Positions 5,334-53,212 of a stretch of DNA of 64,000 nt are shown here, in pieces. The stretch is from a virus. Its lineage: Duplodnaviria; Caudoviricetes. The stretch is from IMG/VR virus record IMGVR_UViG_3300017569_000030, positions 1 to 64,000 of that record, one strand, 5' to 3'. Each line of letters opens with the position of its first letter. Positions within the stretch are counted from its first letter, which is position 1. Below the pieces are notes generated by a model. It saw only the letters and a program-made list of their open reading frames with translations, did not search any database and was not told where the DNA came from. The translations under genes were made by a program, and so were the position numbers.

Positions 5334-5474
5334 ATTATTTTAATTTAAAGTGTTATTGTCAGACTATTTACATAGTTTCGTCTAAGTCTCATCAGTGATA
5401 ATTTTAACGACTCCTTAGCTGTCGAATATGACTTACATAAAAAGTTAGGTGTGGGATTTCTCCCACACAACTAA

Positions 5475-9116: not shown

Positions 9117-9138
9117 AAATTACATAAGTTAATATTTG

Positions 9139-9227
9139 TAGCCCATGTAGGAATCGAACCCACCCCGCCGTCCTCAGAAGACAATACAGATTTAGAGTCT
9201 GTCCGTGCAACCATACACCAATGGGCT
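9139..9227 (-). tRNA. Amber suppressor tRNA (anticodon CUA) with long variable arm
   Basis: AGCCCAT/ATGGGCT acceptor, GTGT-ATGGTT-GCAC D arm, ACAGA-CTCTAAA-TCTGT anticodon arm, variable stem TTGTCTT-CTG-AGGACGG, GTGGG-TTCGATT-CCTAC T arm, A73; 89 nt. Confidence 0.92.
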
Positions 9228-19436: not shown

Positions 19437-19689
19437 TAAAGAATATATCGGTAAACTCTTGATTGAAAAATTAAATCCTATTGGTTATTGTATTAGATTT
19501 GGATTAAATACTCCAGAAAAGCCGATGGTTATTTATGCTGAATTAGAAGATAAACCATTTCTTAAATTCTTAAGACAGGAATTAAAAGATAGAAGATTTA
19601 ATTTAATATATTATGGAGAATTAAAATTAATTTATCCGTAGGATTGTAATCCAATAAATACTGCTTGTGGATGTCAAAAGAAGAATTAA
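19381..19689 (+). CDS. Hypothetical protein between terL and portal (code 15)
   Basis: Open frame overlapping both neighbours. Confidence 0.7.
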
Positions 19690-22123
19690 TTGAAAAAACG
19701 GATAAAGCCATCAATGAACTAGTCTATGCAAAATATGATTTGCAGAAAGCATATAACTATTATAATGGTATAAGAGATGCAGACTAGTTCAGATACCTTG
19801 AAGAGGTGTATGGTGCAAATACTCCTACCACTCTTCACTTTACTCCTTTAATTAAAAAACATATTGACGCTTTAATTGGAGAATATCTTGGAACTCCAAT
19901 TATTCCAAAGATATTCTGCAAGGACAGTGAAACAATAAATAATATAGATAGAGAGAAGCAACTTAAAATCGCTTCTGAGTTACATACTTATTTAAAAGGT
20001 CATTTAAAAAATTCTATTCTCAATTTTCTTGATGGTAAAAATATAAATGATGGATTGGTTGAATAGCAACTTTCAAGAATAGTTTAGGATATTAATAACA
20101 CTTTTGAATCTGAGTATGAAATTGCTGCACAAAATGTTGTAGAATATATTATGCAGTCAAGAGATACTGATATAATGAATGTATTACGTGATTTATTATT
20201 AGACTTGTTAATTACTGGTTATGCTTTTTATCGAGTGAAACCAACAGTTGAGAATGATAATATTAAAATTCAAGCTCTTAATCCATTAAATACATTCATA
20301 GATCGAAACTTTGATTCTCCTTATGTTAAAAATTCATATCGCGCAGTAGTTCGTAATTGGATGACTAAAAATCAAATTTTAAATGAATACGGTAAGGAGA
20401 TGAACAGAGATGATAGAAAGCTACTTGATGAAAAATGGGATTCTGTATATGAAAATGCCATGTATTATGTTAGACTTGGTGAAACTAATGGTGTCCCTGT
20501 TACTGATGGATTACAAGGAGGCATTGAAGTAACTCCAGGTTATCCAGATAGTAAATCTGGTTTATTGCATGAATTAATACCTGTTTATGAGGTTGAATGG
20601 CTTGAAACAGATAAAGATTTTATCATGTAGCGATATAAAACAATACGAATTGGCGAAGAAATATATCTATTAAGAGGTAAAGATGAGAAAGTAATGCGTA
20701 GTAAATCAAATCCATCTTATTGTGGTTTATCTATTAATGGCATTTACTTTCTTAATCGAGGTGTTAAACCATATTCAATGGTTTTAGCTTGTGCACACCT
20801 CCAGGATTGATTATACTAGTTCTGGTTAAATTTCGAGAATTGCTGGAAACCCCTGAGAGTCTTGAATACTTTAAGTAATAATTTCAAGAATTGGGAAATC
20901 AGCAGCTGAGCTTCTAAAAGAAGAGAGTTCAACGACTAAATGTAGGATCAAGTGATCTGAAGTACGAAAATATTAATTTAATATATGATATAGTCTCAAC
21001 ATCTGATGAAAATCAGAGCAGCAGCGAATCGCAAGATTCTAATGCGGACGTAAAATAACGAATTACGTCGAAGAAAATGTAGTATGACCTCTTAAATTTC
21101 TATCGTGATAATTTAATTGCTAACAGCGGAACAATAGGTGATTGGATTGATTACACTCTTATACCTGCTGAATTAGGTGTTAATTTACCAGAGAGATTAG
21201 TTAAATGGTAGGCTTTAAAGAAGCAAGGAATTGGTGTTTTGGATTCTTCTCAAGAGGGAAGATTAGCTTCTGGACAAGCCCCTCTTAATACTATCTTTAA
21301 TGGTTTCGATAACACCGTTAAAACACAGGCAGTACAAGCAATTCAATTAGCTATTGACGCGATAGAACAAACTTGTTCTTCTATTACTGGTGTATTTAGA
21401 GAAAGATTAAATGGAATAGAACAAAGAGATGCAGTAACAAACATTAAGATTGGATAGAATAATTCATTTATTATTACTAAACAATATTATCACTAGATGG
21501 ATTTAATAGTCAATGAAATGTTACTTGATTGTCTTAATTTAGCGAAAGTTGTTTACAAAAATGGATTGACTGGAACTATTATTTTAGGTGATAAATATTA
21601 GAAAGTATTTACTGCACTACCAGAATATTTCACTTTAACCGATCATGATATACGAATTTTAACTAGTACAGATGTCGTAAAGGATCTAGAACAGTTAAAA
21701 ACAATTATTCCTGAATTTGTTAAATCTGGAGGATTACCGCCAGATATTATTATAGAAGCTATAACTAGTAAGAGTATCCCAGATCTTAAATATAAGGTTA
21801 AAAAAGCTATGCAAGTTTAGAAAGATGAAGCAAACCAAGTTCAACAATTAACTCAATAGAATTAGGAGCTTCAAAGTTAGCTTAAATAGTTAAATACTGA
21901 ACTACAGAAAGCATAGAAGAAAATAGAAACTCTTAACTAGAACAAATTAGAATTAGAACAACAAGAAATGTAGACTAAATACCAAATTGAATGGTATAAA
22001 GCACAAACAGATAGAACATATAAAGAAGCTACTAATGAGGAATAGAAAAGAAGAACTCAAGTTGAACTTATGTAGCTTTCAGATGGAAATCCTTATAATG
22101 ATAAAATAAGATAGATTGACTAA
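19671..22123 (+). CDS. Portal protein, exons 19671-20807 and 21080-22123 (code 15, 726 aa)
   Basis: YNYYNG..DQFRYLEE, LHFTPLIKKHIDALIGE; spliced junction HLQD|QYDLLNFYRDNLIANSGT; follows terL. Confidence 0.88.
20808..21079 (+). mobile_element. Group I intron in portal (272 nt, no ORF)
   Basis: P1 CCAGGAU/GUUCUGG with U-G splice pair; P10 ATACTA/TAGTAT; AATTGCTGGAA, AATCAGCAG, TTCAACGACTA, ATATAGTCT; terminal G. Confidence 0.9.
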
Positions 22124-31740: not shown

Positions 31741-31860
31741 TTATGGTTATTATGAAATTCTTTTTATTAATGAAATTAACTATGCCACTAGGCAAAAAAT
31801 TACGTATCTAACGGCACATTAGTAAACTATATTGAAAGTGTGCTACAACAAAAGAATATC

Positions 31861-32976
31861 ATGAAAAGAATTGATAATTTATATGATAAAATTTGTGATT
31901 TATCAAATATTATAGATGCCGCAGCAAATGCTGCCGAAAACAAAAGTAAATAGTATGGAGTACGAATGTTTCTGAAAAACTCCTTTTAGAATTGTATTAA
32001 TTTATCTGAGTTATTAAAAAAGGAGCAATATAAAACTTCTCCATATAAATTATTTACAATATATGAACCAAAAGAACGTCTATTATATAAATTGCCATTT
32101 TATCCAGATAGAATTGTTCATCACGCAATAATAAATATACTTGAACCAATTTGGATGAAATTGTTTACACGAGATACTTATTCCTGTGTTAAGGGAAGAG
32201 GTATTCACGGATTAGTAAAAAAGCTAACCAAAGATTTACGATATAATGTTGATGAGACAAAGTATTGTTTAAAATTAGACATTAAAAAGTTTTATCCAAG
32301 TATTGATCACGATATATTAAAACAGATAATACGTAGGAAGATCAAAGATAAAAAAGTATTAAAATTATTAGATGAAATTATTGATTCTGCTGAAGGTGTA
32401 CCAATTGGTAACTATTTATCGTAGTATTTTGCCAATCTATATTTAACTTATTTTGATCATATAATCAAAGAATAGAAAAGAGTAAAATATTATTATAGAT
32501 ATGCAGATGATATAGTAATATTATCCTCTAATAAACAAGAATTACATGAGTTACTGACTTTTATTAAAGAATATCTTTGGAATGAATTGAAATTAAAAGT
32601 TAAAGAAAACTATTAGATTTTTCCAGTTGATAAAAGAGGGATTGATTATGTGGGATATGTATTTTATCATACTCATGTTTTATTAAGGAAAAGAATTAAA
32701 CAAAATATCTTAAAAGCTGCGAGAAATAAGAATATCAAATCTCTTAAAACATATAAAGGTTGGCTTAAATATTGTGATTCTAAACATTTAATGCAAAAAA
32801 TATATAAATTATCTGGATTAAATTTAGATAATTGGAATGGCAGACAAGTTAATAGAATTGAATTAGATGGAGGAATAATTAAACATATACATAAAATGAA
32901 AAATTATTATAATATAGATTTCGTTAAGAATAACAAATCATATTATACAAAAGTTAAGAAATTATGGTTAAAATAA
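31861..32976 (+). CDS. DGR reverse transcriptase (code 15, 371 aa)
   Basis: EPKER..PDRIVHHA, YCLKLDIKKFYPSI, GVPIGNYLSQ(TAG)YFANLYL, YRYADD, NYQ(TAG)IFP, GIDYVGY. Confidence 0.95.
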
Positions 32977-43128: not shown

Positions 43129-44160
43129 ATGGAAGAAGGAATTAATGATTTAGACTTTTTAGATGAAGTCGATGATTTTGACACAGGTGAAGACACCAAT
43201 TCACAAAATAATTTAGAATAGGAAAATTCTGGTGAAGAAAGTAATCCTATTTTTAATCCAGATGAAGTAACGAGCGATGAATCTCTTATTTCTTCATTGT
43301 TACAATTGAAAGGAATAGATGATAGATCCAAAATTAAGTTTGAAAATGAAGAAGGATCTATAGAAGAAGTAGATTGGAACACATTAAGCAATGAAGATAA
43401 AGTTAATATTTTGAAATCGGATGATCAAAATAATGACTTAGATGATTCTGAAATTCAGTTAATCAATTCTATTCGTAATAGTGGTATGTCTCCTGCAGAA
43501 TACTTACAATATGTCACTAATGATGGAATTAACCATTATATACAAAATAACCAATCAAATGGTTATCAGTTTACGGTTGACCAATACAGTGATGAAGATC
43601 TGTTTAAAGCAGATTTTATAAGTAGAATGGGAGATGTTACTGAAGAAGAAGCTCAAGAGGCTCTTGAAAAAGCACAATCTAATGAAACTTTATTTAAGAA
43701 ATAGATTGATGCTATTAGAAAAGAGTATAAAACGATTGAGGAAGAGAATCTTAGATAGGAGCAAATAAGTCAAGAACAAATAGCTCAAGAACAATATGAT
43801 CAATTTGCTAATCAAATTGGAGATGAAATAAGTAATTTTACAGAATTTTCTGGGTATGATTTAAATTTAGAAAATGATGATATGCAAATGCTGTATGATT
43901 TCATAACAGGAACAGATGCAGCAGGTAATAATTATTTTGCTAAAGCATTATCAGATCCGAAAACTCTTGTACAAGCAGCTTGGTTCACTTTGAATGGTCA
44001 GCAAATGATAAATGATATAACAGAGTATTTTCAAAAAGAAATTACCAAAGTAAGAAAAGAAAGTTATGAAAAGGGTAAATTAGATGCAAATAAACCTACT
44101 AATACTGTCTATCGCAATAAAGGACATTAGTAGGAAGATTATAATTTAGACGATTTTTAA
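43129..44160 (+). CDS. Acidic protein upstream of MCP (candidate scaffold; code 15, 343 aa)
   Basis: Very acidic; LKGIDDRSKIKFE; ALSDPKTLVQAAWFTLNG. Confidence 0.7.
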
Positions 44161-44171
44161 TTAGAAATAAT

Positions 44172-47100
44172 ATGTTAGTTGCAAATTTTACAAGTAGAAT
44201 ACCTACTATGGGTCTGCTGTAAGTTTGGCCCCTGTTAATAGTGATATTAATATGCAAACTCTGTGAATTGCTGGGATTCCTTCAAATATTTGGAAAATCA
44301 GCAGTTTTATCTTTGTGAAAAGGTAAAATTCAACGACTAATGTATAACACGAGCACAGAGGTTCTAATTTAGTTAGAATATGATATAGTCTGAGCTTACA
44401 TGATGATAAAATGTAAGAATTGTTAGATAAAGAGCTAACAAGGTAACAAAATTTGCAAACTAAAACATACGAGGATTGGTCAAAGTACCTGGGCAGTAAG
44501 CCCCACCGTCTTGGTGTAGTAGCTCGTATGTACACTGATAATACTTTGAACTTTATTACAGATGGTCTTAGGAACGTCTATTACAAGGATGAGAAAGCAG
44601 ATCAATTCTAGCTTTCTAGTTCTTTATTGTTTGAGTGGAATGTAGAAACAAATAATATCAAACACATAGAGTTCGCTGAAGTACCAGCTGAAACTGGAGA
44701 AAACGGAAATGAAATAACGATGGCGTTCAAAGAGAACTATTATCAGAAGTATGACATCTTTAGAATTGATAAGACGAAGCAACAGTGTCAAGTTGTTAGC
44801 CGTCCAATTCGCAAGCGTGATGATTACTGGGAAGTACAAGTTCGTTTGATTGATAATAACTTTGATACGATCCTTGATACAGATGGATGCCAGATTGGTG
44901 ATACTACAACGTTCCAATCTGTTGCAGTACCCGAATTGAACGAGGAAGGTTTAAATTTAAGATAGCTTTCCTCCGTTAAGTTAGTTGCTTAATGAAAAAT
45001 TAAATAAATATTTCTAATTGCTGGAATGCTAAGTTCTTATTGAATATGCCAATCAGCAGCAAAGCCTTAGAAAATATAAGCTCAAAGAGAAATACTAAGG
45101 AATGTTCAACGACTAGTCTAGATAGACGTAGGGGAAATCAACCCCGAAATGGAATAAATCTAAAATTTAAATACAATGAAATATATAGTATATCAAACGA
45201 CCAATAAGGTCAATGGAAAAATTTATATTGGAGTACATAAAACCGAGACTCCGGATGATTTCGATGGATATTTAGGAAATGGAATCTATATTTATCGACC
45301 TTCTAGTTATATGCATCCAAAAACGTATTTTCAGTATGCTGTAAAGAAATATGGTATTAAAAACTTTATTCGTACTACAATTAAGGTTTTTGATATAGAA
45401 GCAGATGCTTATAAAATGGAAGCAGACTTGGTAAATGATGAATTTATACAAAGAGATGATACTTATAACTTAATTTTGGGAGGCAAAGATGTATCTCAAT
45501 TTATGGTTAAAGTTTATATGTATGATCTTAATGGAAATTATGAAATGGAGTTTGAAAGCTTAATTGCTGCAGCAAAATATTTGAATCCTAACGCAAAAGG
45601 AGGAGGACATTTACCTAGAGCAATAAAGCATAGGCATCAATTTCTTGGGCATCAATTTTCGTATGAAAAGGTTGATAATATAGGACCTATAAAAGCCATG
45701 AAAAATCGAACTCATGTTGAAAAACCTTATACAGGAGGGAAAGTAGGAAGATTCGATAAAGAAGGAAACCTATTAGAAACGTTTGAAACAATGACTGACT
45801 GCGTTAAAGCAGGATATAAAAATGCAAAGTTAGTTGCATTAGGAAAAAGAAATATATGTAAAGGATTTGTATTTAAATATTTAGATTAAGATATAGTCTG
45901 AACAGTATAGAAACATACTGATTAACAATAATTGTATTCAAAATTCCAATCTCAGATGGAGTTGCATTAGATATTAATTACGGTGCAACTTCGAGTTCGC
46001 TCAAAATAAACTCCTTTAATTGCTGGGATCTCTCTATGAGACAATCAGCAGCGAAGATTCTACAATAGAATAACGTTCAACGACTATCGAAAGTATAGGT
46101 TAAATACCGAATAAACGAGTAGAGTACACTTATCATAAGTGGAAACAGGGAGCACCTTTATAAGGTGAAGATATAGTCTAAACTTATATGTGAATATAAG
46201 AATAATTACGTAATTTCATGACAACATTCCGTTGCGATGCTAGTTGGTCTAGCTTATATGCAATTCAAGAGAATGTATTTATGAGTATCTGTGATGATAA
46301 GGATAAAACAAAGACCGAAGGCGTATATAAAATGCTCAAGAAGGAAAAAGAATTACTCGATACCTTCATGTACGCCATGAATACAGGGTGGAAGTAAGCT
46401 AGCCCTGATTAAATTCTTCTAATTGCTGGAAACCTCAAAAGGCAATCAGCAGCAAAGATTTAAAAACTAGTGACAAACAGTTTTAAATAATGTTCAACGA
46501 CTATCCGTGATAGGATAAGTAAAATTTTACTGAAATGGAGAATAATTTTAAATATATAGTATATCAAACAATAAATATTAATAATAATAAGATTTATGTG
46601 GGGGTGCATAAAACAAAAGATCCTTCTATATTCGATGGATATATAGGAAATGGTGTAAATATCTATCATCCAAGTACTTATGTAAAGCCAAAATATCCTT
46701 TTCAATATGCTGTAAAAAAGTATGGGACATCAAGTTTCAGAAGATCGGTGTTATATATTTTTGATAATGATAAAATGGCATATAACAAGGAGGCAGAAAT
46801 AGTAAACGAAGAGTTTATTAAACGCTCTGATACATATAATGTAATTTTAAGTGGAAAAATACATCCTACTTATTATATTCGATCTTGTATATATCAATTT
46901 GATTTACAAGGTAATTTAGTAAAAAAATGGAATGATATTTATGATGTTTCTGAATTTTTATGTACTTGGAAAGAATCAGTATATTCAGCAATTAGACACA
47001 AATCTCGATTGTATAATTTTTATTGGAGTTATTCTGATAGTATTAATCTTTCTGAATACTCTAGTCCAAATGAATCTAGGAAAGTTTATCAATATAATAA

Positions 47101-50100
47101 GGATGGAAAGTGTATAGCAATTTATAATACTATTGGAGAAGCTGCTAGATATAATAATGTTCAACCAGGACATATAATAACTTATATTAAAGCAGGAACC
47201 TTTTCTAAAGGAGAATATTTCTATTCTTATGAACTATATGATGAGTATGTTTCAAAACCTAGATTAGATTTAAAAGGAAAGACATTATATTTATATGATT
47301 TGGATGGAAATTTTATTAAATCGGAATTTATAGTAGATTTTAAACGAGAATTTGATATTCATACATATAAAGAAATTTCTAATATAATTCTAAATAAATC
47401 TAGCTTAAAAGGATTTCAAATTAGATTAGAATATACTGAAACAATAGAGAAATATTCTCCAAAAAATAAGAAACGTGCCGTAGAAGTTTATACTATTGAC
47501 GGTTCTTTAGTTGGTGAATTTGAAAGTGTTACTCTTGCTTGCAAAACTCTTAAACTTGATTCATCTACTGTATCTAAAATATTAAGAGGAGTAGCAAAAA
47601 CAACCAAAGGATATACTATAAAATATAAAAATTAAAGATATAGTCTAAACAATATAGAAATATATTGATTAATATATATTGTATGCTTTAACAAAGGCAA
47701 TATAGATGTGAATTAACTTACGGTTCACAATAAACTCCTTTAATTGCTGGGACCTCTTACAGTGTAAGACAATCAGCAGCGAAGATTCTACAATAGAATA
47801 ACGTTCAACGACTATCGAAAACATAGCATTTATTGCAAAGAAGTGAGTAGAGTACATTAAAAATAATGGAAACAGGGAGCATCTCTAAATAAGAGATGAT
47901 GATATAGTCTAAACTATATAGTAATATATAGCTAATATATTGGGTAAACCAACAATCACAGATCCTAAACTCCTGTGTTGGGATCTTGCAGCGTGAGCTG
48001 TATAACAAATAACTCCTTGAATTGCATGAAACTCCTAAATTGTTAGGACAACCTGCAGCTAAGCCTTTTATAGGAAAGTTCAACGACTATCGAAAGCGTA
48101 GGTATAAATACTGAGTAAGTGAGTAGAGTAGAGAGTAAAATCTCGAAGTGGGGAGCGTCTCTAAACAAGAGATGATGATATAGTCTAACCTATATAGTAA
48201 TATATAGTTAATATATGGACACAGGTCGCGGTATTTATATAGGTGAGGGTAGAGTATCTGCCCCTTAGTATCGTAAGATACTTCGATCAGCTGCTTAATT
48301 CGGTGAACCCTGAGATGGGAATACCGAGCCAAGTAAGATAATAAAATTATCTGGGCGTGTGTAACGACTATGATATATTATAAATTAAAATTTTCATCAA
48401 TAATTAATAATTATTAGTATGCAAAAAAGAAAAAAATCACTGTTAATTAGCTTAGTATTAGGTGATGGACATATTGCTAAATCTGGAAAGGGTAATTGCT
48501 TGCAAATTACTCATAGTATTAAACAAAAAGAATATTTTGAATGGAAACGCCAATTAATTGCAGATCTTTTAGATTGTAATTTACCTGGAGTTTATCATAG
48601 AGAGGATTCAAGACATAACGAATTTTCTCTTAATAAAAGTCATAGATATTTTCGTATCATTAGAAAATGGTTATATAAAAATGGTATTAAGCGATTTAAT
48701 AAAAAAATATTAGATTATATTACCGCAGAGGGATTGGCTATCTGGTTTATGGATGATGGTAGTCATTGTGTAAATCGCAGAAAATCTACAGGAAAGGTAA
48801 TGAGTCATACTTTTAAATTATATACATTTACTAATGAGGAAGACACAGATAATATTATTCAAATGTTTAAAGAAAAATTTGGCATTAATGTTTATAAATT
48901 AAAATATATAAAAAAGGACGGTTCTCTTAGTTATTATTTACAATGGAAAACAAGAGAAGGTAGAAAGTTTTGTAATTTAATTCGTCCTTATGTTATCCCG
49001 TCAATGCAATATAAATTATTGCAACCAGGAGAATAATATATCTTTAACAGCAGCCAACCAGAAATGGTTGAAGATATAGTCTAAACAAATACAAATTAAA
49101 GTATTTGATTAACAAAATTGTTGATACCTCAAATAGAAGCCGCATGTAACAAATATTGTTACAATAATAAACCAACATTACCTCTGTTTAACCAGATTAT
49201 GAACGATATGGCTGACAAAGCCCAGTCTGATACTGGTGGGCACTGGGTGTTTATAGTAAACCGCAAATTATGGAATGATGTGAACACAGTTCTTGGTGAG
49301 TATCTCGCTAATTATAGAACTGATGGTACTTATATGTATTCCAAGTCTGCAAACAAAGGTATGGGTGGTTATGTCAAGGTCGGAGCAACCTTCGACACAT
49401 ATATTTACGCCGGTGAATTGATTGCCGCATAAATTAAAAATAATTTATGAAAATTTATTTAATTGCTGGAACATCTTGAAGTTTAATAAGCTATAAAGGA
49501 ATTAGTAATAATAAACTTGAAAGCTCAAAAATTATTAAATATAAGACAATCAGCAGCGAAGCTTCTAAACTACTAAAGCATGAAGAACGTTCAACGATCA
49601 TCCCTTTGGGAGTAGATTAATATATTAATCGAAATAATAAACATCTTATGGAATTAAAAAATATAGTTTATATAACAGTTAACTTATGTAATAGTAAATT
49701 TTACTTTGGGGTTCACAGAACTAATCCAGAAGTTTTTGACGGATATATTGGTGCAGGAATCTACAGACAATCAAATGCCACATTAGATACTGCCTTTCAT
49801 AAAGCTGTGCGAAAATATGGTTATGATAATTTTAAAAGAACTATAATTGCTATTTTTCCAGATACAGAAGAAGGAAGAGAGTAGGCTTTTAATTTAGAAG
49901 CAAGTATAGTAACTAAAACTTTGATTAAAAGTAAAAATTGTTATAATTCTGCTTTAGGAGGGCAGGGAAGTACAAATATAGATACAAAACGTGTTTATAT
50001 GTTTAATTTGAAAGGAAATTTTTTAAGAAGTTTTTCTAGTATTAGAGAAGCAGCAAACTTTATTGATTCTACAAATGAATATAATGTTTTAAAAGCTATT

Positions 50101-52240
50101 AGAAATAATTGTTTGGGAAAAAATAGTAACAGCAGTTATGGTTATTTTTGGAGTTATAAGAAAAAATTTGAAAATAATAATCATTGTAATAGAAAAGTAG
50201 CACAATACACAATTTCTGGAAAATTTCTTAGATATTATGATAGTATGACTGAAGCAGAACAAGAGCTTCAAATAAGTACAATATATCAAGCTATTATTAA
50301 AAAATTTACTTCTGGAGGATTTCAATGGAGATATTATGATGGTGATACATCTGATATATCGACTTTGATTTCTAGGAAAAATAAAAATTTAGTATTACCT
50401 ATTAAAATGTTTTCTAAAGATGGAACATTTATAAAAGAGTATAACTGTGTAAACGATTGTGTAAAAGAAAATCCAAATTTATCTGCCAGTTAGATAAATA
50501 GAGTTTTAACCAAAATAATTAAATCTCATAAAGGTTTTACTTTTACATACAAAGATGAAGATATGATCTAGTCTATTTAGAAATAAATAGTATATCGAAT
50601 GAAATTTCGTTTGTGGTAGATAGAGCATTAACTCGTGAATATCCAGATAAGGGTTATGGAGTATGCATCGATCTTACCGCAGATAAAACATCTGGAACTC
50701 CTGCTGTTGCAAAATTCAGTATCACTGGAAAAGATTTCATGACCAACAAACTTATAGGCGTAGGCGGGTATGATGGAAAAAGTTCTGGTGAAGTTGCAAG
50801 CAATGTAGCAGGTTCTAAGCTAATAATGATGGGCTTAAAAATATTTATTTGACAGCGTAGGTCCATCAATAAAAAATTCTTTTAAGTGCTGGAAAGTAGC
50901 ATAACTGATATTAACTTGTTAAGTTTTAATAATAATATTAGTGCTATAATCAGCAGCCAAGATGTATTTGTAATTCCTTTAGGAATTAATACACAAGGTT
51001 CAACGACTAGGCGCAAGCCATAGATTAATTTATTAAAATTAAATCGAAATGGAGAATAATCAAATCAAATATATTGTATATTGTACTACCTGTACAATTA
51101 ATAAATTCATTTATATTGGTTATCATAAAACCAAAAATCCAGATATTTTTGATGGATATATAGGAAATGGAATTTATATAAATAATCCAAGTACCTATAA
51201 TAATCCTAAACAAAAATTTCAATATGCTGTAAAGAAATATGGTCCTTCTAATTTTATAAGAAGTACAATTGCCGTATTTAATACCGAAGAAGAAGCGTTA
51301 GATTTAGAAGCGGAAATAGTAAATGAAGAATTTCTTAAACGGTCTGATGTATATAACGTGGCATTAGGAGGTTTAGGAGGGAATTGGATAATAACAGCAC
51401 ATAAAACTTATCAATATGATTCTGAAGGAAACTTTTTAAATGAATATGTATCTATTAAAGATGCTTCTATGAAAATTAACCGATCTTTCAGAAGTTTATG
51501 GAGGGCTATTAATGATAAATGTAAGTGTGGAGGATTTTTTTGGACAGAAACGAAATTTGATAAATTAGATTTATCAAAAATGAAATTATATGAAGGATTA
51601 CACACGATACCTACTTTTCAATATGATAATTTGGGAAATTATGAATGTTGTTATGATTCAATTTCTGATGCTGGAAGAATATTAAATATTCATTCAGCAA
51701 ATATTTCTAGAGCAATTAAATTAGGAGAAATATGTAAAAATAAGTATTTTACAAATATCTATGCTCCTAACTATAGCATTTCAAAAGATAGACAAATTAA
51801 ATCCTTTGAAATACACCAATATGATTTAGCAGGTAAATATATTACCTCATATAAAAATATGCAAGAAGCTAAAAATAAATTAAAAATTAAGGCAAATATT
51901 TATACTGCTATTAAATTGGGGCAAACGTGTGGAGGTTATCAATGGAATTTTGAAAAGTTGCCTCAAATGCCTCCTGTTAAATCTAAATCTGGAAAAGCTC
52001 GAAGAGTTGGTAAATTTGATAAAAATAATAATCTTGTGGAAGAATATAAGTCCTTAGCAGAGTGCAAAAGAATTAATGGAGCTTCAGTAGAACACGTTAT
52101 TAGGGGTAGAAATGAATTTTCTAAGGGGTACAAATATAAATATTTAGATGATTAAAGATATAGTCTGAAATTTAGTCAATTTTGACGCTGGTGTAGCGGC
52201 TTTCACTCCTTATAGGTCAGTAATTGTCCGTGAGGCTTAA
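44172..52240 (+). CDS. Major capsid protein, 10 exons: 44172-44213, 44456-44950, 45935-45967, 46209-46389, 47682-47713, 47943-47966, 48218-48250, 49121-49414, 50598-50835, 52185-52240 (475 aa)
   Basis: Spliced product is one frame: MLVANF..PTMG|QTKTYED..PELNEEG|YSKFQSQMELH|RNFM..NTG|LCFNKGNIDVN|GKPTITDP|DTGRGIYIGEG|LIPQIE..YAG|NEISF..MMG|YAGVAAFTPYRSVIVREA*; one TAG at 44609. Confidence 0.9.
44214..44455 (+). mobile_element. MCP group I intron 1 (242 nt, no ORF)
   Basis: P1 GGGU/GCCC; P10 AGTTTG/CAAACT; AATCAGCAG, CAACGACTA, ATATAGTCT; terminal G. Confidence 0.9.
44951..45934 (+). mobile_element. MCP group I intron 2 (with HEG)
   Basis: P1 GAGGAAGGU/GCUUUCCUC; core motifs; terminal G. Confidence 0.9.
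45176..45889 (+). CDS. Intron-encoded GIY-YIG endonuclease with NUMOD1-like repeats
   Basis: YIVYQTTNKVNGKIYIGVH..YLGNG; stop overlaps the P7 3' strand. Confidence 0.9.
   Translation: MKYIVYQTTNKVNGKIYIGVHKTETPDDFDGYLGNGIYIYRPSSYMHPKTYFQYAVKKYGIKNFIRTTIKVFDIEADAYKMEADLVNDEFIQRDDTYNLILGGKDVSQFMVKVYMYDLNGNYEMEFESLIAAAKYLNPNAKGGGHLPRAIKHRHQFLGHQFSYEKVDNIGPIKAMKNRTHVEKPYTGGKVGRFDKEGNLLETFETMTDCVKAGYKNAKLVALGKRNICKGFVFKYLD
45968..46208 (+). mobile_element. MCP group I intron 3 (241 nt, no ORF; apparent terminal A)
   Basis: P1 AGUUGCAU/GUGCAACU; P10 AATTACG/CGTAATT; frame and P10 put the 3' end at A46208. Confidence 0.8.
46390..47681 (+). mobile_element. MCP group I intron 4 (with HEG)
   Basis: P1 CAGGGU/GCCCUG; core motifs; terminal G. 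Confidence 0.9.
46535..47635 (+). CDS. Intron-encoded GIY-YIG endonuclease
   Basis: YIVYQTININNNKIYVGVH..YIGNG; NUMOD1-like repeats. Confidence 0.9.
   Translation: MENNFKYIVYQTININNNKIYVGVHKTKDPSIFDGYIGNGVNIYHPSTYVKPKYPFQYAVKKYGTSSFRRSVLYIFDNDKMAYNKEAEIVNEEFIKRSDTYNVILSGKIHPTYYIRSCIYQFDLQGNLVKKWNDIYDVSEFLCTWKESVYSAIRHKSRLYNFYWSYSDSINLSEYSSPNESRKVYQYNKDGKCIAIYNTIGEAARYNNVQPGHIITYIKAGTFSKGEYFYSYELYDEYVSKPRLDLKGKTLYLYDLDGNFIKSEFIVDFKREFDIHTYKEISNIILNKSSLKGFQIRLEYTETIEKYSPKNKKRAVEVYTIDGSLVGEFESVTLACKTLKLDSSTVSKILRGVAKTTKGYTIKYKN
47714..47942 (+). mobile_element. MCP group I intron 5 (229 nt, no ORF)
   Basis: P1 GUGAAU/GUUCAC; core motifs; terminal G. Confidence 0.9.
47967..48217 (+). mobile_element. 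MCP group I intron 6 (251 nt, no ORF)
   Basis: P1 GAUCCU/GGGAUC; P10 GTGTT/GACAC; terminal G. Confidence 0.9.
48251..49120 (+). mobile_element. MCP group I intron 7 (different core, with LAGLIDADG HEG)
   Basis: P1 GGGU/GCCC; AATTCGGTGAA..AATACCGAG..TGTAACGACTA; terminal G. Confidence 0.88.
48419..49036 (+). CDS. Intron-encoded LAGLIDADG endonuclease
   Basis: LISLVLGDGHI and LAIWFMDDGS. Confidence 0.9.
   Translation: MQKRKKSLLISLVLGDGHIAKSGKGNCLQITHSIKQKEYFEWKRQLIADLLDCNLPGVYHREDSRHNEFSLNKSHRYFRIIRKWLYKNGIKRFNKKILDYITAEGLAIWFMDDGSHCVNRRKSTGKVMSHTFKLYTFTNEEDTDNIIQMFKEKFGINVYKLKYIKKDGSLSYYLQWKTREGRKFCNLIRPYVIPSMQYKLLQPGE
49415..50597 (+). mobile_element. MCP group I intron 8 (with HEG)
   Basis: P1 CGGU/GCCG; core motifs; terminal G before AAT GAA ATT. 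Confidence 0.88.
49648..50586 (+). CDS. Intron-encoded GIY-YIG endonuclease, itself TAG-recoded
   Basis: IVYITVNLCNSKFYFGVH..YIGAG; in-frame TAG at 49882 and 50491. Confidence 0.85.
50836..52184 (+). mobile_element. MCP group I intron 9 (with HEG)
   Basis: P1 AUGGGCU/GGUCCAU; P10 CAGCGT/ACGCTG; terminal G. Confidence 0.9.
51049..52155 (+). CDS. Intron-encoded GIY-YIG endonuclease
   Basis: YIVYCTTCTINKFIYIGYH..YIGNG; NUMOD1-like repeats. Confidence 0.9.
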   Translation: MENNQIKYIVYCTTCTINKFIYIGYHKTKNPDIFDGYIGNGIYINNPSTYNNPKQKFQYAVKKYGPSNFIRSTIAVFNTEEEALDLEAEIVNEEFLKRSDVYNVALGGLGGNWIITAHKTYQYDSEGNFLNEYVSIKDASMKINRSFRSLWRAINDKCKCGGFFWTETKFDKLDLSKMKLYEGLHTIPTFQYDNLGNYECCYDSISDAGRILNIHSANISRAIKLGEICKNKYFTNIYAPNYSISKDRQIKSFEIHQYDLAGKYITSYKNMQEAKNKLKIKANIYTAIKLGQTCGGYQWNFEKLPQMPPVKSKSGKARRVGKFDKNNNLVEEYKSLAECKRINGASVEHVIRGRNEFSKGYKYKYLDD

Positions 52241-52293
52241 TTGTGAAAGCAAGAATTTAAAAATAAAATAAAAAATAGAAATATAGATTAGTA

Positions 52294-52320
52294 AGGGAGA
52301 GCCTTAATACCCTCTCCCTT
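52294..52320 (+). terminator. Hairpin after MCP
   Basis: agggagag..ctctccct. Confidence 0.55.
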
Positions 52321-52348
52321 ACATTATTTAAATGTTAAATGAATTAAT

Positions 52349-53212
52349 ATGGCAAACAAGACAGTTACTAAAACTGATATTGTATTTGATGGAAAAATTA
52401 TCACATTAAGAAGTGTGTATGATAAGGCAGGAATTAAATATTTTATTCAGCCTTGTAAAAATAAATTAGGTCAATATCCTCCATGCATCAAACGTGTGGA
52501 TTCTACTGGGAATATGATTATGAGTGAAAAAGAAAGAGACGCTTGGTCTGAAGGCAAAGCTGTTTTCTTTCCAGAAAATCACATGTTTGAAATAACAAGC
52601 GGAAAGACCTATAACTTAGATGATCCTCGCGAAAAAGCAGAGTGGGATGCTATATGTAATTGCCCTCTTATTGCTCCTAGCAGGGATGCAAGAGATGCAA
52701 ATGGAAATCTTATTATAGATGGACCGCAATATTCTACCTTAAAGAAACCTGCTCGTATGGGTGTAGCAGAGCTTTATGTTGATAGACCTGGATTAGATAC
52801 TCAACGCAGAGTTTCACATAAGAAACTTGTTCATACTGCTGAATCATATATTTATGATGATGAGCGTGGAACAGATGGTCGTTTGAATATGGCTAGACTA
52901 CTTGGTAAGAATATGAAGAATCAACCAGATGCAGATGTTACAGACTTCTTAATCCGCATTGCCGAGAAAGAACCTCAGAAGATTATCAATCTTTATACAG
53001 GTGGAGAAACATCTCTTCGTCTATTGTTTATAGAAGCTCGTGAAAAGAAAGTTATCTATATTAAGAATAAGTTATACTTATATGGAGATAATATTGTTTT
53101 AGGAGCAACAGACGATGCGGTTATCGCTTGGATGAAAGATCCAAAGAATCAAAAGGTTCTGGAATTAATTAAAAAAGACACTTATCCAGATTATTATCCT
53201 AGTGCTGAATAA
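52349..53212 (+). CDS. Conserved crAss-like virion protein downstream of MCP
   Basis: 287-aa ORF with no TAG; capsid-operon position. Confidence 0.8.
   Translation: MANKTVTKTDIVFDGKIITLRSVYDKAGIKYFIQPCKNKLGQYPPCIKRVDSTGNMIMSEKERDAWSEGKAVFFPENHMFEITSGKTYNLDDPREKAEWDAICNCPLIAPSRDARDANGNLIIDGPQYSTLKKPARMGVAELYVDRPGLDTQRRVSHKKLVHTAESYIYDDERGTDGRLNMARLLGKNMKNQPDADVTDFLIRIAEKEPQKIINLYTGGETSLRLLFIEAREKKVIYIKNKLYLYGDNIVLGATDDAVIAWMKDPKNQKVLELIKKDTYPDYYPSAE

Follow-up and report, generated by a model that had tools for sequence, protein, structure and literature searches.

The window analysed in this study, a 64,000-nt stretch of the IMG/VR virus record IMGVR_UViG_3300017569_000030 (Duplodnaviria; Caudoviricetes), carries at positions 44172-52240 of the plus strand a major capsid protein (MCP) gene whose coding sequence is broken into ten exons. 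Comparison with related loci indicates that this is very probably the single capsid gene of an amber-recoded, probably Zeta-type crAss-like gut phage, that it is interrupted by nine group I introns, and that the introns accumulated through selfish spread. The gene is of a known kind, as introns in crAss-like capsid genes have been published, and with nine introns it is the most extreme case among the related loci considered here.

Exon map and identity of the capsid gene

The exon map was rebuilt independently through uninterrupted homologues and base-by-base reading of the junctions. Listing of open reading frames (ORFs) and stop-to-stop translation of 44100-52400 showed capsid-like fragments spread over all three plus-strand frames, with five endonuclease-like ORFs between them. 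A tblastn search of phage records with exon 2 led to the human-gut contigs MT835470.1 and MT835492.1, in which the capsid genes are uninterrupted and encode 473 and 474 aa, and when these proteins were mapped back on the window all of the larger exons and three micro-exons were located. The resulting map has 1,428 coding nt in a span of 8,069 nt, with introns making up the other 6,641 nt (82.3%). The ten exons, the 475-aa product and the three very short exons between introns 4 and 7 were all described in the initial annotation of this DNA, and its numbers match the rebuilt map throughout.

Related loci are referred to here by L numbers, and L007, L008 and L016 are the nearest uninterrupted orthologues (88.6% identity to the spliced product). 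Exon 1 (44172-44213, 42 nt, residues 1-14) begins with ATG, agrees with L007 at 14 of 14 residues with 95% nucleotide identity, and ends in GGU opposite the guide G. It is followed by exon 2 (44456-44950, 495 nt, residues 15-179), which matches the uninterrupted MCP of L001 in tblastn with an E value of 2.5e-68, and by exon 3 (45935-45967, 33 nt, residues 180-190), where 10 of 11 residues are those of L007 and which uninterrupted orthologues join to its neighbours. Exon 4 (46209-46389, 181 nt, residue 191 to the first base of codon 251) has a tblastn E value of 2.6e-10 and shares 56 of 60 residues with L007. The micro-exons that separate introns 4 to 7 are exon 5 (47682-47713, 32 nt, 8 of 10 residues as in L007, joined to exons 6-8 in L087), exon 6 (47943-47966, 24 nt, encoding GKPTITDP and contiguous with its neighbours in both L087 and L007) and exon 7 (48218-48250, 33 nt, 9 of 11 residues as in L007); together with exons 1 and 3 they make up the confirmed micro-exons of the gene. 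The remaining exons are exon 8 (49121-49414, 294 nt, tblastn E 6e-22, 80 of 98 residues as in L007), exon 9 (50598-50835, 238 nt, E 1.8e-21, 71 of 79 residues) and exon 10 (52185-52240, 56 nt), which encodes the last 17 aa, all identical to L007, and the TAA stop codon.

Joined in this way, the exons sum to the exact length of the uninterrupted L007 gene, and the product aligns without gaps over 475 of 475 positions to eight uninterrupted orthologues, which is the comparison with intron-less capsid genes that the initial annotation had proposed as a check. The junctions between exons 5 and 9 are independently confirmed because L087 does not have introns 5-8, and exons 5-9 are contiguous there except for an L087-specific intron inside exon 8. 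The exons are also under strong purifying selection; against L007 the nonsynonymous rate (dN) is 0.09 with a saturated synonymous rate (dS), and against L020 dN/dS is 0.13.

The product had been named a major capsid protein in the initial annotation, and profile searches, made with the orthologue L007 in place of the spliced window protein, bear this out. L007 scores 52.3 bits against the Pfam family Crass_capsid (PF23898; cut-off 27) and matches phrog_11589, annotated as major head protein, with an E value of 5e-10, while exon 2 of the window alone reaches 3.6e-4. A second, intact MCP copy, which the initial annotation named as a possible alternative source of the capsid, was looked for and not found. 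In the 81,471-nt IMG/VR record that holds the window the only capsid matches are the fragments described here, and relatives judged 95-100% complete carry no spare copy, including L085, which is 100% complete, has about seven introns in its own MCP gene and is single-copy. A spare intact copy is therefore unlikely. The assignment of the phage as probably a Zeta-type crAss-like phage is based on the 155-190 kb genomes of its relatives, recoding with a suppressor tRNA, a diversity-generating retroelement (DGR) and the intron load.

The capsid frame is open only if TAG is read as a sense codon, since an in-frame TAG is present in exon 2 (44609-44611, codon 66). Relatives have Gln, Arg or Glu at this position, and conversely the CAA at codon 15 of the window aligns with a TAG in L007. 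The same reading is needed elsewhere in the window, where two portal ORFs contain 4 and 16 in-frame TAGs. A tRNA with the anticodon CUA, a putative amber suppressor, was found by ARAGORN on the minus strand at 9138-9227 (90 nt), with tRNA-Sec as its best Rfam model (44.5 bits). Among the intron-encoded ORFs, in-frame TAGs occur only in that of intron 8, which has three, and none is present in the other four. This ORF keeps its frame and its C-terminal motifs aligned with three paralogues across all three TAGs, and because it is open only through these codons, the selfish ORF uses the altered code of the phage. The reciprocal codon alignments, the CUA tRNA and the TAGs of the portal ORFs together indicate that TAG is a sense codon, most likely for Gln. 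The CUA tRNA has a long variable arm and is labelled Pyl by ARAGORN, yet the residues opposite TAG in the capsid orthologues are mostly Gln, Glu and Asp.

Ribozyme cores and intron-encoded endonucleases

The intervals between the exons were compared with the Rfam family Intron_gpI (RF00028; curated cut-off 50 bits), with a permissive scan added for those that contain ORFs. Four ORF-less introns exceed the cut-off, namely intron 1 (44214-44455, 242 nt, 56.4 bits), intron 3 (45968-46208, 241 nt, 85.4 bits), intron 5 (47714-47942, 229 nt, 81.2 bits) and intron 6 (47967-48217, 251 nt, 98.2 bits), the matched intervals being 44206-44412, 45966-46200, 47678-47931 and 47956-48207. Four introns that each carry a homing endonuclease gene (HEG) of the GIY-YIG type gave split or partial matches of 22.6-46.5 bits, because the ORF interrupts the ribozyme. 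These are intron 2 (44951-45934, 984 nt; 45.5 bits for the 5' part and 24.8 for the 3' part), intron 4 (46390-47681, 1,292 nt; 46.5 and 24.4 bits), intron 8 (49415-50597, 1,183 nt; 22.6 bits for P4-P6) and intron 9 (50836-52184, 1,349 nt; 33.7-35.9 bits for P3-P7). Intron 7 (48251-49120, 870 nt), which carries a LAGLIDADG HEG, is divergent, and the elements P1, P2, P4-P6, P7, P8 and P9 were all found in it in order. Leaving aside their ORFs, the ribozymes of the five HEG-bearing introns resemble the four ORF-less ones in core size. The covariance models for group I introns, suggested in the initial annotation as a check, thus recovered eight of the introns and matched intron 7 weakly.

Short core motifs gave the same picture for all nine. 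The J8/7-P7' motif GATATAGTCT, with at most one mismatch, occurs once in every intron, 27-73 nt before the 3' splice site, and only three further times on the plus strand of the 64 kb, one of these being in another intron. It lies at 49073 in intron 7, at 50565 in intron 8 (as GATCTAGTCT) and at 52157 in intron 9. Seven introns contain the exact J6/7-P7 motif TTCAACGACTA, which takes the forms GTAACGACTA in intron 7 and GUUCAACGA in intron 8; the P7 strands of intron 7 are ACGACUA (48363-48369) and UAGUC. At the splice sites, the last base is U in each of the nine 5' exons and G in eight of the nine introns. The Rfam matches, the P7 and P7' strands in all nine intervals and the terminal U with guide pairing together bear out the earlier count of nine group I introns in the capsid gene.

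The guide pairings comprise a P1 of 4-9 bp with U.G and a P10 of up to 8 bp. P1 and P10 are 4 and 6 bp in intron 1 (P10 AGUUUG/CAAACU; the intron ends in G), 9 and 4 bp in intron 2, 9 and 7 bp in intron 3 and 7 and 8 bp in intron 6. P1 is 6 bp in intron 4, 7 bp in intron 5 (GUGAAU side), 4 bp with U.G in intron 7, which ends in G, and 9 bp in intron 9. When each guide was scored against each junction in a nine-by-nine test, the own junction scored highest for introns 1, 2, 3, 4, 6 and 9; the P10 pairings of introns 5 and 7 are offset by one or two bases and were read by eye. A U opposite a guide G within the first 10-25 nt of the intron was found at every 5' site except that of intron 8. The initial annotation placed a P1 U-G pair at every junction, and this stands for the terminal U in nine of nine and for the guide G, with the qualification that the intron 8 guide is short (about 4+3 bp) and ambiguous. 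A P4 segment picked as the intron 8 guide by a script for contiguous pairing was rejected.

The exons that precede the introns share some features as well. Five of the nine 5' exon ends (44213, 44950, 46389, 48250 and 49414) are GGU and a sixth is GGCU, and at three of the GGU exons (introns 1, 4 and 7) the end is GGGU with a GCCC guide. The shared ends may reflect a target preference of ribozymes moving to new sites. Insertion sites are not significantly concentrated in the more conserved parts of the protein (mean local conservation 0.779 versus 0.751 for random sites, P = 0.15).

Evidence for function of the guides comes from covariation between guide and exon, which was assessed at the intron 2 site. 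Four haplotypes are found at this site (aa179/180), represented by the window, by L009, L010 and L018, by L081 and L082, and by L017. The 9-bp P1 is kept in all four through two compensatory pairs, and an 8-bp P10 is kept in the three other haplotypes through three compensatory changes, whereas P10 of the window is 4 bp. Such compensatory changes point to selection for splicing and are the strongest argument for function that sequence comparison provides. That splicing takes place in vivo and needs no protein helper is inferred, as is its efficiency.

Five introns were reported in the initial annotation to carry endonuclease genes, four of the GIY-YIG and one of the LAGLIDADG family, and both the count and the families hold. 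The LAGLIDADG gene lies in intron 7 (48419-49036, plus strand, 205 aa) and matches Pfam LAGLIDADG_2 (PF03161) with 95.2 bits (cut-off 25) as well as phrog_11023. The GIY-YIG genes, also on the plus strand, are paralogues with 36-43% identity, all of them matching phrog_314 and carrying NUMOD DNA-binding modules. That of intron 2 (45176-45889, 237 aa, GIY-YIG and NUMOD1) matches phrog_314 with an E value of 3e-28, PF01541 with 13.6 bits and TIGR01453 with an E value of 9e-8. In intron 4 (46535-47635, 366 aa) the protein has NUMOD1 and I-HmuI NUMOD-like domains and a TIGR01453 E value of 6e-9. The intron 8 gene (49648-50586; phrog_314 E 9e-24) encodes 312 aa if TAG is sense, with TAGs at 49882, 50491 and 50569 and TAA at 50584, and that of intron 9 (51049-52155, 368 aa) matches phrog_314 with an E value of 4e-28 and PF01541 with 18.5 bits.

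Assignment of these four to the GIY-YIG family was made in several ways. With full-length proteins Pfam returned NUMOD domains only, and a sequence search of the PDB with the intron 9 protein found nothing relevant. The N-termini match TIGR01453, 'group I intron endonuclease', at E values of 3e-6 to 6e-9, under the cut-off of that model. The motifs IVY...IY(I/V/F)G and the invariant R, E and N are all present, and for an AlphaFold model of the N-terminal domain of the intron 9 protein (pLDDT 85) the three highest-ranked PDB matches are all the catalytic domain of I-TevI (probabilities 0.97-0.99), the best being 1mk0 (0.99, TM 0.61/0.70). The predicted fold and the motifs place these proteins in the family, and the sequence profiles are below threshold. 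The start codon of the intron 4 gene (46535) falls within the P3' strand of the Rfam alignment, and folding of the intron 4 ribozyme and translation of its endonuclease may be mutually exclusive.

Intron mobility and the competing explanations

A scan of IMG/VR gave 80 related loci, and intron presence was tallied over 82 related loci. About 25 of these 82 carry 1-7 introns in the capsid gene, mostly one, at about 15 distinct insertion sites in the family. About seven introns are present in each of L084, L085 and L086, while L087, where the gene is partial, has at least five, and the nine of the window are the maximum seen, placing it first among about 87 loci. Uninterrupted genes for the same protein are present in the closest relatives, L007, L008, L011, L012 and L016. 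The window shares the insertion sites at aa 14, 179, 251, 378 and 458 with L084-L087, which differ from it by extra introns near aa 137 and aa 320. Orthologues at the same site were found for intron 2 in L009, L010, L017, L018, L081, L082 and L087, for intron 4 in L085 and L086 (about 70% identical), for intron 8 in L085 and L014, and for intron 9 in L086. No orthologues of introns 5, 6 and 7 were found in the related loci. Introns 3, 5 and 6 are mutually closest, with 76-81% identity in their cores (81% between introns 3 and 5), which suggests that they arose by copying within the gene.

Comparison with L087 (IMGVR_UViG_3300029966_000107) revealed a much more recent event. From 44942 to 46239 only 5 of 1,299 nt differ (99.6% identity), and this block runs from the final 9 nt of exon 2 through intron 2, exon 3 and intron 3 and takes in the first 31 nt of exon 4. 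Beyond it, 21 of 150 nt in the remainder of exon 4 (14%) and about one third of positions in intron 4 are different. The sharp boundary points to a recent homing event with co-conversion. By sequence identity, the block of intron 2, exon 3 and intron 3 has recently moved between diverged genomes, with an ORF-less intron and a micro-exon carried along by their HEG-bearing neighbour.

The following model explains these data best. In the pre-mRNA each internal guide would pair with the end of the adjoining 5' exon and form U.G where cleavage occurs, and most guides would also pair with the start of the 3' exon to form P10. The introns would then be removed by guanosine-initiated two-step transesterification, and the ligated mRNA would be translated into the 475-aa capsid protein with UAG read as sense by the CUA tRNA of the phage. 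Endonuclease-driven homing would carry adjacent ORF-less introns and micro-exons by co-conversion, and the ribozymes would also copy to new sites in the same gene, as the paralogous introns 3, 5 and 6 suggest. If capsid synthesis were affected in timing or yield, this would be a by-product.

A different proposal, raised in the initial annotation, gives the introns a regulatory role, in which serial folding and splicing of the ribozymes would gate the timing or amount of capsid, and skipping or mis-pairing would yield variants. The lengths of exons 1, 3, 6 and 7 are multiples of three, so that skipping of exon 3, 6 or 7 would be in frame, and the similarity of the cores of introns 3, 5 and 6 noted above could favour mis-pairing. 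Every intron also has a TAA or TGA in the frame of the upstream exon 0-15 codons from the 5' splice site, which would release ribosomes before the ribozyme core. However, stops this early are expected by chance at 26-37% G+C, and the guides of introns 3, 5 and 6 each recognise their own junction specifically, so that mis-pairing should not be easy. Moreover, in the five closest relatives this protein is encoded without any interruption, and near relatives such as L087 differ in intron content, so a regulatory role for the introns is improbable. Selfish elements are favoured because uninterrupted relatives make the same protein, intron content is polymorphic and one block has recently moved; on these comparisons selfish accumulation, possibly with a competitive benefit, ranks well above a dedicated regulatory role.

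Some observations weigh against the favoured reading of a functional gene with nine selfishly spread group I introns. A single metagenomic assembly, estimated to be 49% complete, is what links all nine across the four long exons. The Rfam matches of introns 7 and 8 are weak (15.1 and 17.7 bits for intron 7, 22.6 for intron 8) and their guides are short, and the PF01541 scores of the GIY-YIG proteins (13.6-18.5 bits) are below the curated cut-off of 22.6. Intron 3 ends in A46208 and does not have the near-universal terminal G, and established ribozyme work has found that changing this omega-G to A strongly impairs exon ligation.

The first of these points could mean that the introns have been over-counted, with strains of different intron sets merged across the long exons (exon 2, 495 nt; exon 8, 294 nt; exon 9, 238 nt; exon 4, 181 nt) so that no molecule has all nine. 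The highly polymorphic intron content of related contigs and the nature of the record, a linear metagenomic contig of that completeness, would fit this. However, only 24-33 nt of exon separate neighbouring introns within the group 4-7, and 33 nt separate introns 2 and 3; exons of this size are shorter than any read, so these blocks are physically real. The block of introns 2 and 3 also recurs in L087, and L084, L085 and L086 independently carry about seven introns each, with L085 being 100% complete. An assembly artifact of this type is quite unlikely.

The terminal A of intron 3 was examined closely. Its P1 (GAGUUGCAU with GUGCAACUU) sets the 5' cut after U45967, and the guide runs straight into a 7-bp P10 (AAUUACG with CGUAAUU) that places the start of the 3' exon at C46209; P1 and P10 together form 16 contiguous bp, the longest guide among the nine. 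The conserved His-Arg junction (CAU|CGU) demands the same C46209 start. The last base is taken to be A46208 because the guide and the His-Arg junction both fix the splice sites. Alternative sites were rejected: a 3' site at G46200 reaches TGA after six codons, one at G46210 yields CAU|UAA, and shifting the 5' site to A45966 or A45969 sacrifices U.G pairing, with the conserved Arg lost or altered. The P7 strands of intron 3 are identical to those of other introns. L087, a contig from another sample, carries the same terminal A, although as a result of the block transfer it is not evolutionarily independent. When the 3' junction was searched with N at the last base, the metagenome scan gave no matches and the viral-contig scan gave one, L087, and a literature search on natural exceptions to the terminal G found nothing usable.

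Either the long guide compensates for the absent G, or intron 3 is a weak point of the gene. The latter would agree with a decaying gene, in which the capsid is no longer correctly expressed, for instance because intron 3 fails at ligation, and the phage is a helper-dependent or dead variant. The terminal A itself and the stop or frameshift produced by nearby canonical G sites speak for such decay. However, none of the ten exons is disrupted and selection on them is strongly purifying, the five HEG ORFs are all open under the code of the phage, and no other guide of the nine is as long as that of intron 3. In addition, two samples share the omega-A block on backgrounds that have diverged, so its spread took place after the A was gained. 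Decay of the gene is accordingly very improbable. A more speculative idea, which we regard as possible and no stronger than tentative, combines several of the points above: intron 3 would be a natural intron that ligates after a terminal A with its 16-bp P1-P10 guide compensating, and the gene would be a nursery where ORF-less ribozymes copy to new sites, travel as cassettes of intron, micro-exon and intron driven by the endonuclease of a neighbour, and serve as weapons against co-infecting relatives without introns.

Comparison with known systems

Group I introns in essential genes are well known from phage T4 (td, nrdB and sunY) and from Staphylococcus phage Twort, in which orf142 has three. 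These introns have I-TevI-type GIY-YIG endonucleases, with ORFs looped out of the ribozyme and stops soon after the 5' splice site. The T4 and Twort genes have one to three introns each and, unlike the capsid gene of the window, are not known to have exons of 24-33 nt or an alternative code. Fungal mitochondrial cox1 genes are highly expressed and have many group I introns, micro-exons and a mixture of LAGLIDADG and GIY-YIG endonucleases. The capsid gene resembles cox1 in intron density, micro-exons and mixed endonuclease families, although cox1 is an organellar gene whose splicing often needs maturases or nuclear factors and whose translation is not tightly coupled to a lytic course.

Closer parallels are found within crAss-like phages. 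The Zeta group was reported by Yutin in 2021 to have genomes of 145-192 kb, recoded stop codons, suppressor tRNAs and as many as 14 introns in a genome (PMC7886860). The MCP gene of one Zeta metagenome-assembled genome (cMAG), OLRF01000054, is in five fragments with four insertions that were detected through their endonuclease domains (PMC7886860, Fig. 7a), and a 2025 study makes the same point for further Zeta genomes (PMC12386605). The statement in the initial annotation that introns in crAss-like capsid genes had been reported is therefore accurate (PMC7886860). In both OLRF01000054 and the window, the capsid gene of a crAss-like phage is interrupted by a number of group I introns and by endonuclease ORFs inside them. 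In contrast to OLRF01000054, as compared by its published description, the capsid gene of the window contains nine introns, of which four are ORF-less, has micro-exons as short as 24 nt and an in-frame TAG, and includes one intron that does not end in G. Jug jumbo gut phages, which have Bacteroides-type hosts, contain about 18.5 group I introns per genome, and metatranscriptome reads confirm splicing for 37 of 76 (PMC12880540). Their genes are in two to three fragments, whereas the capsid gene of the window is in ten. In PhiPA3 the intron endonuclease gp210 helps the phage compete with a co-infecting relative (PMC11620839), and by analogy such a weapon could be a model for a benefit of the HEGs in the window. 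New aspects here are the degree (nine introns, 82% intron, an exon of 24 nt), a central cluster in which most introns are ORF-less, the transfer of a cassette, the covariation of guide and exon, and the omega-A intron.

Other elements were detected elsewhere in the window. A tenth group I intron, ORF-less and with an Rfam score of 66.5 bits, lies in the portal gene at 20775-21018 (plus strand) between the ORFs 19665-20810 and 21077-22123, both of which match the portal protein family phrog_6547. Whole-window Rfam scans had suggested that all group I matches lie in the capsid gene; this was wrong, and the portal intron was found by a core-motif search and a local scan. A RAGATH-1 hammerhead ribozyme was found at 5357-5425 on the minus strand (67.4 bits, cut-off 56.3), and sub-threshold Rfam matches to RT-18 (37.5 bits) and RT-17 (33.3 bits) lie at 31778-31861 on the plus strand, inside the DGR locus.

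With the capsid gene described here, the number of introns documented in one phage gene rises to nine, compared with four in the published crAss-like example. Detection of introns through endonuclease domains or default Rfam filters under-counts them, as four of the nine in this gene are ORF-less. With its compensatory guide and exon alleles, a fresh two-intron cassette and an intron that does not end in G, the locus offers material for tests, and an exon of 24 nt must be recognised by two ribozymes simultaneously. If the capsid is indeed made efficiently from this gene, it would be a strong natural test of the cooperative folding of many ribozymes on one recoded bacterial mRNA.

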